A stretch of DNA of 63,601 nt from an uncultured Anaerolineales bacterium (GTDB lineage Bacteria > Chloroflexota > Anaerolineae > UBA1429), in NCBI GenBank assembly GCA_964651255.1, contig CAZYWU010000002.1, positions 82,038-145,638 of the forward strand. The letters are read 5' to 3'. The notes under the pieces were generated by a model, which saw only the letters and a list, made by a program, of their open reading frames with translations, was not told the origin of the DNA and searched no databases. A program made the translations under genes and the position numbers. The number at the start of each line of letters is the position of its first letter. The stretch's first letter is position 1. Shown here piece by piece: positions 14,340 through 42,222 of this stretch.

Positions 14340-14368
14340 TTGCGGAGGCCTGTCACGTGTGGTATAAC
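14340..14368 (+). promoter_or_regulatory. sigma70-type promoter of prs
   Basis: TTGCGG-N17-TATAAC with extended -10 TG. Confidence 0.65.
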
Positions 14369-14414
14369 AGCACGGTCTTTGACCAACACAAAGCGCAAGG
14401 AGCATCTCGACGGC

Positions 14415-15395
14415 ATGGATAACGAAGAGAATACCTGGCTGCGGAATAATCTGCGCATCTTTGGGGGCGCTTCGCACCCGGAGCTTGCTCAAGACATCGC
14501 CGAATACCTTCAAGTTCCGCTGTGCGAACACACGACTTCTCGCTTTAGCAACGACAATATGTACGTGCAGCTGCTGGAGAGCGTGCGCAGCAAGGATGTG
14601 GTCATCATCCAATCCTTTTCGCCACCCAACGTGAGCGACAACATCATCGAGCTGCTGATGATGATGAATGCCGCCGCCAGCGCTTCCGCCCGATCCATCC
14701 ATGCCGTTATCCCTTACTATAGTTATGCCCGTTCCGACAAAAAGGACGAGCCCCGCATATCGATCGCAGGGCGCCTGATGGCCGACCTCATCGCAACCGC
14801 GGGAGCAACGCACGTGATGACGATGACGTTGCACTCACCGCAGGTGCATGGCTTTTTCAGCGTGCCTACAGATCACCTCACGGCGCGCCCCGCCTTTGTG
14901 CAGCATTTCCGAAAGCAGGACCTCAGCAACACCGTTGTCGTTTCTCCGGATATCGGCCATGCCAAGCGCGCCACCTCACTGGCCCGCAATCTGGGTGTCG
15001 GCGTTGCCGCCGGCGACAAGACGAGGGTGTCGGACACCGAGGTGGTGCTCAACACCATCATCGGCGATATCAAGGGCAAGGATGTGATCGTCTTTGACGA
15101 CGAGATCGCCACAGGAGGATCGATCATTGCCCTGGTGCAAGCGCTCCGCCACGAGGGCGTGAGGCGCATCACCCTTTCCTGCACCCACGGTGTGTTCTCC
15201 GGCAACGCGATCAATCTGCTGGATGAGCTGGATGTCGCCGAGATTGTGACCACCAACACGGTGCCGATCCCCGAGCACAAACGGCTCCCCAACATGACGG
15301 TCCTCTCAGTGGGGAGTATATTCGGGCAGGCGATACACTGTAACCTCATGGGTCGCTCGGTGGGCCAGCTTTTTGCCTTCTGGCACGAGCAGTAA
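14415..15395 (+). CDS. prs: Ribose-phosphate pyrophosphokinase
   Basis: ESVRSKDV, PYYSYARSDKK, LHSPQVHGFF, VVSPDIG, DDEIATGGS, THGVFS, TNTVP. Confidence 0.95.
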   Translation: MDNEENTWLRNNLRIFGGASHPELAQDIAEYLQVPLCEHTTSRFSNDNMYVQLLESVRSKDVVIIQSFSPPNVSDNIIELLMMMNAAASASARSIHAVIPYYSYARSDKKDEPRISIAGRLMADLIATAGATHVMTMTLHSPQVHGFFSVPTDHLTARPAFVQHFRKQDLSNTVVVSPDIGHAKRATSLARNLGVGVAAGDKTRVSDTEVVLNTIIGDIKGKDVIVFDDEIATGGSIIALVQALRHEGVRRITLSCTHGVFSGNAINLLDELDVAEIVTTNTVPIPEHKRLPNMTVLSVGSIFGQAIHCNLMGRSVGQLFAFWHEQ

Positions 15396-15423
15396 CGATC
15401 GTATACAGCCATCCCAGCGCCAG

Positions 15424-15451
15424 TTGACCCTGTTACCGACGACCCTATAAT
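15424..15451 (+). promoter_or_regulatory. Near-consensus sigma70 promoter of the ychF paralogue
   Basis: TTGACC-N16-TATAAT. Confidence 0.75.
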
Positions 15452-15482
15452 GTCTCTCTGTGGTTCGAATCCGCAGGGAGAC
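15452..15482 (+). promoter_or_regulatory. 12-bp hairpin with TTCGAAT (tRNA T-loop) loop covering the RBS
   Basis: GTCTCTCTGTGG-TTCGAAT-CCGCAGGGAGAC is fully paired (2 G-U). GGGAG lies in the 3' arm; ATG at 15489. Confidence 0.6.
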
Positions 15483-15488
15483 ATTTTC

Positions 15489-16574
15489 ATGCAAATCGCC
15501 CTCATTGGATTGGCTCAATCCGGCAAGACGACGCTGACCACAGCGATGACCAAGGGGCGCGCCGAGACATCCGGCGGGCGTCGCGGTCGCGTGGAGATCA
15601 AAAGCGCGATGGTCGACGTTCCGGATGCGCGAGTCGACCGCCTGACAGAGATGTTCCAGCCTCGCCGTACGGTGTACGCACAGGTGCGCATCGACGACAT
15701 CACCGGCGTGAACCGTGGTACGGCGGCCCAGACGGGCTTTGATGCACAGGTGCTCGATGCTCTCAGCCGGGCCGATGCGCTCATGTTGGTGGCACGCGCT
15801 TTTGAGGACGATACCGTCCCCCACCCCGATGTAACCATCGATCCCGTGCGAGATATCGAGACGATCAATCTCGAGCTGATCATGAGCGATCTGACGATCA
15901 TCGAGCACCGTATCGAAAGAATCGAGGCGCAAATCCCCAAAGCGAGAGCTGATGCGCGGGACCGCTTGTCCGAGGAACTGGGTCTCATGCGACGCCTCGC
16001 GGATGCATTGAGCCGCGGACAGCCGGTACGGTCCGTTGACCAAAGCCCGGAAGAGGAGGTCTTTCTCCGCAGCTTTCAGTTTCTGACGGCTAAGCCTGCT
16101 CTGGTGGTGCTGAACCTGGGAGAAGACGCTGCCCCCTTTGACCCGAACAGGTGGCCCGGCCTTCCTGAGGGCGATCCAGTGCTGGGGATTCGCGCCGCCG
16201 TCGAGAGAGAGATATCCGAGCTACCCGAGGACGAGCAAGCGCTCTTTTTGGAGAGCTACGGCATTGACGAGCCGGGCCTGCATCGGTTGCTGCGGGAGAG
16301 CTACCGGTTGCTCGGCCTCATGTCCTTTTTCACCGTTGGCGAGGACGAAGTGCGAGCCTGGACCGTGCGCCGCGGCGCGAACGCCGTGGAGGCCGCGGGC
16401 GCCATCCACACAGATCTCGCCCGCGGGTTCATTCGCGCCGAAGTGATCAGCTACGAGGACATGCTGGCCTGTGAGACCATGGCTGAGGCTCGCAAGCGCG
16501 GCAAACTTCGCCTCGAGGGTAAGGACTATATCGTGCAGGACGGCGACATCCTGAACATTCGCTTTAACATCTAG
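15489..16574 (+). CDS. YchF/DUF933 family ATPase, divergent paralogue
   Basis: P-loop GLAQSGKTT, DxxG, FLTAKP, SFFTVGEDEVRAW, IHTDLARGFIRAE, EGKDYIVQDGD (TGS-type C-terminus). Confidence 0.9.
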   Translation: MQIALIGLAQSGKTTLTTAMTKGRAETSGGRRGRVEIKSAMVDVPDARVDRLTEMFQPRRTVYAQVRIDDITGVNRGTAAQTGFDAQVLDALSRADALMLVARAFEDDTVPHPDVTIDPVRDIETINLELIMSDLTIIEHRIERIEAQIPKARADARDRLSEELGLMRRLADALSRGQPVRSVDQSPEEEVFLRSFQFLTAKPALVVLNLGEDAAPFDPNRWPGLPEGDPVLGIRAAVEREISELPEDEQALFLESYGIDEPGLHRLLRESYRLLGLMSFFTVGEDEVRAWTVRRGANAVEAAGAIHTDLARGFIRAEVISYEDMLACETMAEARKRGKLRLEGKDYIVQDGDILNIRFNI

Positions 16575-20831: not shown

Positions 20832-21929
20832 ATGGCACTGCAACTGGGACTGGTGGGACTGCCCAATGTTGGCAAGACTACCCTGTTCAACGCTCTAACA
20901 CGCGCCGGCGCGATGGTTGCCAGCTATCCCTTTACCACCATCGACCCCAATGTGGGGGTTGTACCTGTCCCTGACCCCCGCCTTGACCGCATTGCAGAGA
21001 TCATCGCTCCCCAGGAAGTGGTGCCCGCTAGTATGCGCGTGGTGGACATCGCCGGACTGGTGCGTGGCGCCAATACTGGAGAAGGCCTTGGCAACCAGTT
21101 CCTCTCGCACATTCGGGCCGTCGACGCGATCGCCATGGTGGTGCGCTGTTTTGAGAGCGGCGAGGTAGCACATGTAACCGAGGTCCTGGATCCGATAGAG
21201 GATATCGAGACCGTACAGCTGGAGTTGATCCTGTCTGACCTGGCGCTGCTGGAAAGACACATGGAGCGCGTTCAGACAAGGGCCAAGGCTGCACCCCGCG
21301 AATACGCCCACGAGATCGCCGCGCTGGATAGCATCGCCTATCGTCTACAGAGTGGACAATGGCTTCAAAAGGAGACGCTGGACGAACACGAGATTCAGGC
21401 AATCGCCGGATTGGACCTTCTGACGATCAAACCGCTGATCTATGTCGCTAACGTTGACGAGCATAACCTGCCCGACGGTGGCGCACTGGCGTCCAGGGTC
21501 AGCAGTTACGCCGCTGCCCATGGCAGTCCCTGTGTGATCGTGTGTGCCCAGGTAGAGGCAGACCTGGCGGAGTTCCCGCCTGAAGAGGCCGCCCTCCTGG
21601 CACAGGAGATGGGGATTGGGGTTGGCGGGCTCCGGCAGCTGATTGCTGTGGGGTATCGTACGCTCGACTATATCACCTTCTTTACTACCACCGGAGAAAA
21701 GCAGGTACGCGCCTGGGAGCTCCAGCGGGGCAAAACCGCCCTCGATGCTGCCGCCCGTGTGCACTCTGACCTGGCTCGTGGATTCATCCGGGCCGAAGTG
21801 GTCAGCTTCGCTGCGCTGGACAGGGTCGGCTCAATCGCGCGTGCCCGCGAACAGGGGCTGCTCCGTCTTGAGGGACGCGACTATGTGGTCGAGGATGGCG
21901 ACATCATCCACATCCGGTTCGCGCTCTAG
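20832..21929 (+). CDS. ychF: Redox-regulated ATPase YchF (canonical)
   Basis: GLPNVGKTT, YPFTTIDPN, DIAGLVRGA, GEGLGNQFL, NVDE, GFIRAEVV, EGRDYVVEDGD. Confidence 0.95.
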   Translation: MALQLGLVGLPNVGKTTLFNALTRAGAMVASYPFTTIDPNVGVVPVPDPRLDRIAEIIAPQEVVPASMRVVDIAGLVRGANTGEGLGNQFLSHIRAVDAIAMVVRCFESGEVAHVTEVLDPIEDIETVQLELILSDLALLERHMERVQTRAKAAPREYAHEIAALDSIAYRLQSGQWLQKETLDEHEIQAIAGLDLLTIKPLIYVANVDEHNLPDGGALASRVSSYAAAHGSPCVIVCAQVEADLAEFPPEEAALLAQEMGIGVGGLRQLIAVGYRTLDYITFFTTTGEKQVRAWELQRGKTALDAAARVHSDLARGFIRAEVVSFAALDRVGSIARAREQGLLRLEGRDYVVEDGDIIHIRFAL

Positions 21930-34501: not shown

Positions 34502-34577
34502 GCCCCAGTAGCTCAGAGGATAGAGCAGAGGTTTCCTAAACCTTGTGCCGGGGGTTCAACTCCCTCCTGGGGCACCA
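34502..34577 (+). tRNA. tRNA-Arg(CCT)
   Basis: Acceptor GCCCCAG/CTGGGGC, D arm GCTC/GAGC, anticodon loop TTCCTAA, T loop TTCAACT, encoded CCA; 76 nt. Confidence 0.97.
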
Positions 34578-41703: not shown

Positions 41704-42222
41704 ATGTATATGTATGAGATCGGCAGCCGAGTCGTCCATCCCTGCTATGGTGCGGGGGTTGTGGTTCGAATCCAGGAAAAGAGCATCGGCGACACCGTCC
41801 ATGCCTATTATGTCATCGACACCGTGTCGCGTCCCATGCAGCTCATGGTTCCCGTCGAGCGTGCTGAGGAAGTTGCACTGCGGCCGGTGGGCAAAGTCGA
41901 GGAACTGCGAGAGTGCCTGTATCTCTGTCAGGATCCTCCACAGGATGAAGACATCAACAAAGACCTGCGCGCCCGTCAGGCCCTGATGCGCGAGCAGCTC
42001 AAGTCGGGAGTCTTTGGCGATATCGTCGAGATCGCAAGAATGCTGTATTTCATGAACAGCAAGCGCCCTCTGGGAACCATCGACAGGCAGCTCTTTGACC
42101 AGGGCAAGGACTTTATCGCGGGCGAACTCGCTCTGGCTTGTGACCTGCAGATCGAGGACGCCAAGCAAGAGATCGAAGACCTGCTCATGGCCATGCTGAA
42201 ACCTGCCCAGGAAGAGCAGTAG
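41704..42222 (+). CDS. carD: CarD family transcriptional regulator
   Basis: YEIG..VVHP.YGAG.V..I, L.VP......LR, L.SG....I.EI.R.L. SD AGGAGG. Confidence 0.88.
   Translation: MYMYEIGSRVVHPCYGAGVVVRIQEKSIGDTVHAYYVIDTVSRPMQLMVPVERAEEVALRPVGKVEELRECLYLCQDPPQDEDINKDLRARQALMREQLKSGVFGDIVEIARMLYFMNSKRPLGTIDRQLFDQGKDFIAGELALACDLQIEDAKQEIEDLLMAMLKPAQEEQ

Follow-up and report, generated by a model that had tools for sequence, protein, structure and literature searches.

A conserved RNA hairpin joined to the promoter of a ychF paralogue in Anaerolineae: a candidate device for limiting translation to the gene's own transcripts

We analyzed the leader of ychF-A, a gene for a YchF paralogue, within a window of 63,601 nucleotides from an uncultured Anaerolineales bacterium. 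The ribosome-binding site (RBS) of this gene lies in a hairpin that directly adjoins the −10 box of the gene's own promoter, and both are conserved in relatives. On balance, we consider it somewhat probable that the hairpin is a conserved cis-acting RNA element around the ychF-A RBS, fused to the gene's own sigma-A-type promoter, and that only read-through RNA buries the Shine-Dalgarno (SD) sequence. The hairpin would then be conserved because it pairs the RBS with the bases just after the −10 box. With an anti-SD segment lying between the −10 box and the transcription start, translatable mRNA would come from the gene's own promoter only. If true, this would represent a compact natural "translational insulator" between the adjacent, co-oriented genes prs and ychF-A, and one of the few inferred promoter/leader architectures for a poorly studied class.

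The upstream gene, prs (ribose-phosphate diphosphokinase), is an open reading frame at positions 14340–15395 of the + strand (TIGR01251, 334.7 bits); its start in the gene calls of relatives is later, corresponding to 14415 here. The co-oriented ychF-A follows at 15489–16574 of the + strand and encodes 361 aa (TIGR00092, 302.4 bits; alignment to the profile starts at residue 4). Its start, MQIALIGL from the ATG at 15489, was conserved among relatives; an in-frame ATG at 15450 was not. Because both genes are on the + strand, the term "divergent", which the first-pass annotation had applied to ychF, can refer only to sequence divergence and does not hold as orientation. As for the promoter, the −35 hexamer TTGACC (15424–15429, + strand) and the −10 hexamer TATAAT (15446–15451, + strand) are separated by 16 nt and together match the consensus at 11 of 12 positions. 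Inspection of the sequence at this locus showed no hairpin between the prs stop codon and this promoter. The second ychF paralogue is preceded by a 43-nt spacer containing neither promoter nor hairpin, so there is no shared ychF leader.

The hairpin directly adjoins the −10 hexamer and occupies 15452–15482 of the + strand. Its 5′ arm, GTCTCTCTGTGG (15452–15463), lies over the discriminator and start-site region, and the first 8 nt of this arm form a pyrimidine-rich anti-SD strand. The loop TTCGAAT (15464–15470), which is T-loop-like in this genome only, is followed by the 3′ arm, CCGCAGGGAGAC (15471–15482), which includes the SD sequence GGGAG at 15476–15480. The tail ATTTTC (15483–15488, + strand) is both a short U tract and the spacer between the SD and the ATG. 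The stem comprises 12 pairs, two of which are U·G, and the pairing continues 3 bp further into the −10 box (AAT/ATT). The first description of the sequence, including its caution about this extension, was therefore accurate. The 105-nt intergenic RNA was predicted to fold at −32.5 kcal/mol with a z-score of −3.7, and none of 200 shuffles folded as well; the hairpin itself was predicted at −21 kcal/mol. Among the curated RNA families of Rfam 15, the best matches were at chance level (17.5 bits versus a gathering score of 48) and did not cover the hairpin. Elsewhere in the genome, neither the arms nor the combination of TATAAT plus GNCTC with a hairpin after it recurred. A repeated element or a regulon was rejected as an explanation, the arms being single-copy in the genome. 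Hairpins adjoining a −10 box were not enriched genome-wide: at offsets of 0–3, approximately 4–7 were observed against approximately 5 expected among 245 promoter-like sites. This comparison used an exact hairpin-start profile, as a crude profile of the first paired base in minimum-free-energy folds had been uninformative. Only two other candidates with the same design were found among ~250 promoter-proximal gene starts.

The leader was then compared with its orthologues. The comparison set comprised 18 distinct orthologous leaders from two Anaerolineae genera, namely this one and 17 others. Close relatives were obtained by genome search, together with homologous proteins traced to their encoding contigs; a related-locus search of metagenome and genome contigs returned nothing above 56% identity. 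As observed, TATAAT was invariant and touched the stem in all 18 leaders, GGAG lay inside the 3′ arm in all 18, and the distance from the −10 box to the ATG was 37 nt in most of them. The −35 hexamer was TTGACC or of the TTGCAG type in all genus-level relatives, with the 16-nt spacer kept. Right after TATAAT, the anti-SD strand showed the consensus GNCTCYYY, which pairs with the GGAG-containing SD strand. The consensus stem of the genus consisted of an 11-bp core plus the 3 bp into the −10 box.

Because a MAFFT alignment of the 18 leaders shifted the 3′ arms of the two genera by one column relative to each other, pairs were counted on arms fixed at the ends of the stem. Paired cells made up 96.3% of the basal 8 bp, compared to 82.8% in shuffles, the percentage being inflated because the arms for this counting test were picked by best pairing. 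When the partner strand was slid, pairing dropped to 48–68%. The covariation score of the basal 8 bp was 0.55 versus 0.26, a value reached by none of 500 shuffles. Covariance analysis of orthologous leaders, which the first-pass annotation had proposed as a check, thus revealed a covarying basal stem, with compensatory change on both sides at 5 of the 8 pairs; basal pair 2, for instance, was seen as U-A, G-C, and A-U. The covarying sequences represent only two or three clades, with approximately 5–7 independent compensatory events. The wobble pairs were U·G on the + strand, with a single exception in leader L205, and would be C·A mismatches if read on the other strand, which argues for selection on the sense RNA.

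The same substitutions bear on the alternative that the palindrome acts as DNA, as the operator of a dimeric repressor over the ychF-A promoter start site, which we regard as very improbable. An inverted repeat over +1 to +31 of a strong promoter does occupy the classical operator position. However, the bases of the half-sites covary (GT..AC, GG..CC, GA..TC, AT..AT) instead of being conserved, and the two U·G pairs among the 12 in the window would be half-site mismatches as DNA. Furthermore, the half-site spacing shifts by 2 bp between the genera, in which the stem-loop is 31 and 33 nt long, and the arms are single-copy in the genome.

The position of the transcription start determines which RNAs would contain the complete stem. 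Holoenzymes of the sigma-70 type start transcription ~7–9 nt downstream of the −10 box. In a class-wide set of 48 leaders, position 8 after the −10 box was a pyrimidine in 38 and position 9 was a G in 33; the leader hairpins of five other genera begin 1–3 nt from position 7. From the promoter geometry, this Y8-G9 step, and the leader hairpins of the other genera, we infer a start at ~15458–15460, within the 5′ arm. The SD was predicted to be almost fully paired in the long RNA, with an unpaired probability of 0.00 here and not exceeding 0.02 in any of the 17 long RNAs. For RNAs starting at +7 or +9, the predicted value was ~0.3 (range 0.0–0.9), and in 3 of 17 relatives the SD of the short RNA was still predicted to be paired, via other structures.

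Under the reading that we favor, polymerase at the gene's own promoter would start at 15458–15460, inside the 5′ strand, so that the resulting mRNA would lack the anti-SD segment and its SD would be freer. This mRNA would carry only a 4–6-bp apical hairpin at its extreme 5′ end, likely as a 5′-end stabilizer. Transcripts arriving from upstream, from prs in this genome, would carry both strands and form the 12–15-bp hairpin; because the SD would be buried in it, ychF-A would remain untranslated from such RNA. We infer both the existence of the read-through RNA and this translational consequence. A promoter-choice translational switch had been suggested from the sequence of this leader at the outset, and the comparison strengthens it in part: conservation of the promoter goes along with that of the SD-burying stem and the pairs covary, while the start site and the read-through are predicted.

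Alternatively, the whole hairpin could be part of ychF-A's own mRNA and serve as a constitutive or signal-responsive translational operator, with temperature, a protein, the ribosome, or YchF as the signal. We judge this distinctly unlikely. It would require either that transcription starts nearer to the −10 box than we predict or that the main promoter lies further upstream; a start within 1–2 nt of TATAAT would make the hairpin a constitutive 5′-UTR repressor. The covariation extends to positions 1–2 directly 3′ of TATAAT; therefore, some functional RNA must contain these positions, and the own-promoter transcript should not, a point that would suit such an operator. It would also be consistent with the predicted complete burial of the SD in any RNA with the 5′ arm, and SD-sequestering 5′-UTR stems are common, as in IS200 (PMC4513863). 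Nevertheless, the TTGACC-16-TATAAT arrangement is kept in every relative, which sets the start ~7–9 nt downstream, and the same position is indicated by the Y8-G9 step as well as by the leader hairpins in other genera. In addition, with 12–15 bp and −21 to −25 kcal/mol the stem exceeds the stability expected of a typical thermometer, and no Rfam family matched.

We also considered the hairpin as mainly an intrinsic terminator or 3′-end protector of prs, with the overlap of promoter and SD due to the short spacer. This explanation is unlikely in our judgment, although several features are in line with it. The hairpin is the first stable one 3′ of the prs stop codon, its −21 kcal/mol fold is followed by AUUUUC, relative L203 has UUUUUUCC, and the tRNA-Ser terminator of this genome likewise has only 4 U. 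However, the corresponding tails are GTTCTT, TCTATCT, and GTTT within the genus and CCGT, TCGT, AGGT, and TACC in the sister genus; ATTTGC and ATGT occurred as further tails among the relatives. A terminator scan made no call at the site, where A + UUUU + C is below its criterion of 5 T in 8. Moreover, the SD is always in the 3′ arm and the 5′ arm always begins from the −10 box, neither of which a terminator needs. The hairpin was also kept in L209 and L210, in which a gene other than prs lies upstream, and in L207 and L213, in which prs is already followed by a terminator-like hairpin of its own upstream of the promoter. Judging from these leaders, the hairpin is tied to ychF and not to prs. 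Because the U tract lacks conservation, a terminator role, which had been raised for this site, is possible for this genus alone. Here, the hairpin and AUUUUC may also stop, or stabilize at the 3′ end, part of the prs mRNA. Such a role is compatible with promoter-dependent exposure of the SD, to which it may add in this genus.

The tip of the hairpin in the window, G-UUCGAAU-C (15463–15471), fits the T-loop consensus (G)UUCNANN(C) and is a full match to GUUCNANNC. This consensus is needed by both TruB and Pus4, and consensus stem-loops can be modified by TruB in vitro (PMC13492117). Like a tRNA T-arm or minihelix and the GUUCNANNC targets of TruB/Pus4, the structure has a 7-nt UUCGAAU loop closed by G-C on a 12-bp (7+5) stem, followed by a 3′ A. 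From this likeness, the first-pass annotation had proposed a tRNA T-arm/minihelix mimic. The proposal was not borne out, as the loop proved unconserved in relatives, the very result that had been named beforehand as speaking against it. The first loop base was T in none of the 17 other distinct leaders and C in every genus-level relative, off the TruB/Pus4 consensus. Even the closest relatives, whose YchF is 95–96% identical, carry the loop CTCGAAT, and others carry CTTGAAC, GCTCGATAG, GCTCTGAAG, GCTCCACAG, or CACA. Since C leads the loop in every genus-level relative, T15464 is a derived C-to-T change. The minihelix geometry of 12 bp plus 7 nt, present in the window as described, was likewise shared by no leaders other than those of the closest clade and L204; elsewhere in the genus the stem is 11 bp and the loop 9 nt, and in the sister genus a stem of 8 bp is combined with an internal loop and an unrelated tip.

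Further comparisons with tRNAs were similarly negative. Unlike tRNA-like structures, the hairpin has no CCA, its 3′ tail being AUUUUC, and no D/T-loop partner, and the consensus is lost in every relative. ARAGORN called no tRNA at the hairpin, its sole call in the window being a tRNA-Arg at 34502, and Rfam gave nothing tRNA-like there, even with E-values up to 10. The genome yielded 37 tRNAs, none of which had acceptor or T-stem sequence in common with the hairpin. A tRNA remnant or att site was rejected on these grounds, as the stems match no resident tRNA and both ARAGORN and Rfam are silent. The 2.36-Mb genome contains 16 copies of the sequence GGTTCGAATCC, 13 in tRNA genes and 3 elsewhere (this site and two within coding sequence). 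Approximately one non-tRNA copy is expected by chance, so the 11-mer alone is unremarkable; what stands out is its placement on the tip of a 12-bp stem. A functional acceptor–T-arm minihelix mimic, recognized by TruB, TrmA, RNase P/Z, or similar enzymes and controlling a ribosome-associated ATPase, is therefore extremely improbable. Compared across these leaders, the TTCGAAT loop is a single derived C-to-T change with no conserved role. A tRNA-mimic claim would have been striking; it fails in the comparison with close relatives, and one base change is enough to turn the tip of a 12-bp stem into a perfect T-loop. There is a very slim chance that, in this one lineage, the change gave the ychF-A mRNA a true GUUCGAAUC T-arm at its extreme 5′ end, which TruB and/or TrmA bind or modify as a recent exaptation. 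If true, it would be a young, species-specific tie between tRNA-modifying enzymes and a ribosome-associated ATPase, and not the conserved function.

The ychF-A leader resembles several known systems. With Rho-independent terminators that overlap a downstream promoter or RBS, it shares a stable hairpin and a short U run (AUUUUC) after a co-oriented gene; it differs in that the U tract is weak and unconserved, and in that the SD and the −10 box, not terminator rules, constrain the arms. Hairpins of the ompA type are 5′-terminal stabilizing stem-loops of bacterial mRNAs. Similarly, the predicted ychF-A mRNA starts with a 4–6-bp hairpin without unpaired 5′ nucleotides, as do the leaders of other genera, but a stabilizing role accounts for the apical stem only and not for the covarying basal 8 bp. 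SD-sequestering 5′-UTR stems, such as that of IS200 tnpA (PMC4513863), and RNA thermometers share with ychF-A an SD paired to an upstream pyrimidine-rich anti-SD, and in each the closed stem would block binding of the 30S subunit. However, the IS200-type stems lie entirely in their own 5′ UTR, whereas the ychF-A stem is cut by the predicted start site and is far more stable than typical RNA thermometers. The scheme proposed here is the same as that of the fold-back inhibition of read-through transcripts of IS10 (Davis, Simons and Kleckner 1985, pmid 2416461, as cited in PMC13181058). According to that account, in IS10/Tn10, and analogously in the protection of IS50 and other insertion-sequence transposases from external promoters, an inverted repeat spans the gene's own start, as is predicted here. 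Transcripts from outside hold both arms of the IS10 repeat and bury the RBS, and those from the internal promoter, without the 5′ arm, are translated. As cited there, the IS10 mechanism was shown genetically, whereas that of ychF-A is drawn from comparative sequence alone. The two also differ in that the 5′ arm of ychF-A begins right where the −10 box ends, and in that the gene concerned is a chromosomal, housekeeping-type gene downstream of prs, encoding a YchF paralogue and not a transposase. A housekeeping-type gene of Anaerolineae thus appears to use a trick known from insertion sequences.

We re-read positions 15200-15700 of the window, and every letter that the first-pass annotation had reported for the promoter, hairpin, tail and ATG was matched. 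The ORFs on either side are prs upstream and a YchF-family protein (ychF-A, 15489-16574) downstream, both on the + strand of contig C2 in a 2.36-Mb genome of 55 contigs, which the names borne by close homologues mark as an Anaerolineae (Chloroflexota) MAG. On this strand, the −35 hexamer TTGACC (15424-15429) and the −10 hexamer TATAAT (15446-15451) are separated by 16 nt and scored 11/12 in a promoter scan. The −10 box adjoins the 5′ arm of the hairpin (GTCTCTCTGTGG, 15452-15463), which is followed by the loop TTCGAAT (15464-15470), the 3′ arm CCGCAGGGAGAC (15471-15482), the tail ATTTTC and the ATG at 15489. AAT/ATT pairing lengthens the hairpin to 15 bp, and the predicted fold of the intergenic RNA (−32.5 kcal/mol; z-score −3.7) was equaled by 0 of 200 shuffles. 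An in-frame ATG inside TATA-ATG (15450-15452) stretched the ychF ORF call to 374 aa; this ATG is not kept in relatives (e.g., TATAATATC in locus L013), and the YchF family profile alignment starts from the ATG at 15489. A second, canonical ychF (20832-21929) is located ~5 kb downstream on the same strand, behind a 43-nt spacer with no leader comparable to that of ychF-A. The two paralogues are 39% identical; ychF-A begins MQIALIGLAQSGKTT, and its paralogue carries the canonical GLPNVGKT. Both were found in many family- and class-level genomes, often on one contig.

Orthologous loci were collected from four same-genus genomes with many family- and class-level genomes, from metagenome and genome collections, which yielded distant relatives only, and from contigs encoding the nearest homologues in a protein collection. 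Pooling gave 18 distinct leaders with a common architecture: a −35 of TTGACC or TTGCAG type, a 16-nt spacer, an invariant (CC)TATAAT, and, in most, 37 nt from the −10 box to the ATG. In all 18, the stem starts at the first base past TATAAT and GGAG lies within the 3′ arm. For two sister-genus loci (L014 and L016), the ATG at which the tblastn match begins is internal; the true start is probably the in-frame ATG lying 15 nt further upstream, which gives back the 37-nt distance and normal Shine-Dalgarno (SD) spacing. The covariance analysis that the first-pass annotation had proposed was then run on an arm-anchored alignment. Basal pairs 3-5 (C-G, U-A, C-G), which hold the SD core, are invariant. 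The others vary: pair 1 is G-C, once A-U; pair 2 U-A, G-C or A-U; pair 6 U·G, C-G or U-A; pair 7 C-G or U-A; and pair 8 U-A, C-G or U·G. The basal stem thus covaries, with two-sided changes in five of the eight pairs, 96.3% of cells paired vs. 82.8% in shuffles, and a covariation score of 0.55 vs. 0.26, reached by 0 of 500 shuffles, in leaders that come from few clades and whose arms were picked by best pairing. Shifting the 3′ strand by 1-3 columns reduced pairing to 48-68%.

With a single exception (L205), the wobbles are U·G on the + strand, and the stem-loop measures 31 or 33 nt depending on the genus. These features point to the sense RNA as the level of selection and disfavor a protein-binding DNA palindrome. 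The hairpin may also act as a terminator for prs, as the first-pass annotation had allowed, or as its 3′-stabilizer. Such a role is possible in this genus, where tails such as AUUUUC in the window and UUUUUUCC in L203 occur; however, most relatives lack a U tract, and the hairpin is kept behind a URO-D-family gene (L209), behind a distant upstream gene (L210), and where prs has its own terminator-like hairpin before the promoter (L207 and L213). Judged from these comparisons, termination or 3′-stabilization does not appear to be the conserved function. In several genera other than that of the window (L033, L035 and L031), the ychF-A leader carries a strong hairpin with a U run behind it (e.g., ...GGAGCCGGGCTTTTTGTG or ...GGCAACTCTGTTATTTTG), which looks like a transcription attenuator in the 5′ UTR.

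The hairpin had also been proposed to mimic a tRNA T-arm/minihelix. ARAGORN found only a tRNA-Arg at 34502 in the window and nothing at the hairpin, and an Rfam search of 15300-15600 returned nothing meaningful, even at E up to 10. None of the 37 ARAGORN tRNA genes of the whole genome has the acceptor strands GTCTCTC/GGGAGAC or the T stem TGTGG/CCGCA, so the hairpin is not a deleted copy or att remnant of a resident tRNA. The 11-mer GGTTCGAATCC occurs 16 times genome-wide, with ~1 expected by chance in 4.7 Mb of two-stranded sequence; 13 copies are within tRNA genes (one truncated by a contig end), and the other three are the hairpin and two sites within coding sequence without a hairpin. The latter, at 41763-41773 (apparently coding) and in contig C23, look like chance occurrences. 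Among orthologous leaders, the loop reads CTCGAAT in four sequence sets with 95-96% identical YchF, and CTTGAAC, GCTCGATAG, GCTCTGAAG, GCTCCACAG or CACA in other relatives; in the sister genus, the basal stem is 8 bp long, an internal loop is present and the tip is unrelated. Because the first loop base is C in all genus-level relatives, the T at 15464 is derived, by a transition. Both TruB and Pus4 need the consensus GUUCNANNC (PMC13492117), which the relatives' GCUCGAAUC fails. In the RNAalifold consensus of the genus leaders, a core of 11 bp is prolonged by 3 bp into the −10 box and the tip is variable, so the 12-bp, 7-nt geometry is clade-specific. Judged by loop conservation, the measure that the annotation itself had set, the mimic is refuted, and its survival as a species-specific exaptation is very improbable.

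Transcription from a sigma-70-type promoter is expected to start ~7-9 nt past the −10 box, which would place the ychF-A start at 15458-15460. Of 48 distinct ychF-A leaders across the class, 38 have a pyrimidine at position 8 past the −10 box and 33 have G at position 9; no other feature downstream of the box is as conserved as this Y-R step. The leader hairpins of five other genera start 1-3 nt from position 7, which fits a 5′-terminal stabilizing stem-loop. Class-level loci, including L017-L040, show a pyrimidine-rich discriminator, a conserved T-T-G (Y8-G9) and a hairpin starting there, probably a start site with its 5′-terminal stabilizing stem across Anaerolineae. If this start is right, mRNA from the gene's own promoter would lack 5′-arm positions 1-6 (or 1-8). 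Pairs 1-2 covary although they would be absent from that mRNA, so the full stem must then matter in RNA arriving from upstream. The predicted unpaired probability of the SD was ≤0.02 in 17 of 17 long RNAs and had a median of ~0.3 (range 0.0-0.9) in RNAs starting at +7 or +9, which fits the full stem acting in upstream-derived RNA. Some genera (L020, L032, L027 and L031) have a prs-ychF-A gap of only ~12-40 nt with no promoter or hairpin, implying a simple operon; in L020 and L032 the gap is 12-20 nt, and co-transcription of prs and ychF in the lineage is therefore plausible.

In the mechanism proposed here, a form of the promoter-choice switch of the first-pass annotation, read-through RNA from prs, or whichever gene lies upstream, would fold the full hairpin and bury the SD, whereas the own transcript could not form it and would keep a small 5′-terminal hairpin. 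The covarying SD-burying stem and the freer SD predicted in short RNAs uphold this proposal in part, and we infer its start site, read-through and translational effect. We consider it the best-supported explanation, by a little over even chances; its main rivals are a constitutive 5′-UTR operator and the partial terminator role. The arms occur nowhere else in the genome, and its 245 promoter-like sites show no enrichment of hairpins that begin at a −10 box. Of ~250 gene starts that combine an SD with a promoter-like site within 120 nt, a stem that begins at the −10 box and buries the SD occurs at two more, both on the minus strand: TAGAAT-CCTCCT-N9-AGGAGG-N5-ATG near 24317 of contig C4 (TAGAAT-CCTCCT-ACGTGAATC-AGGAGG-CGATT-ATG), and in contig C42 a −10-like box followed by an anti-SD strand pairing with the SD. 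These genes may share the design, in numbers too small for a rule. The logic proposed for the ychF-A leader is the same as that of IS10 fold-back inhibition (Davis, Simons and Kleckner 1985, pmid 2416461, cited in PMC13181058), and it is akin to SD-sequestering stems such as that of IS200 (PMC4513863).
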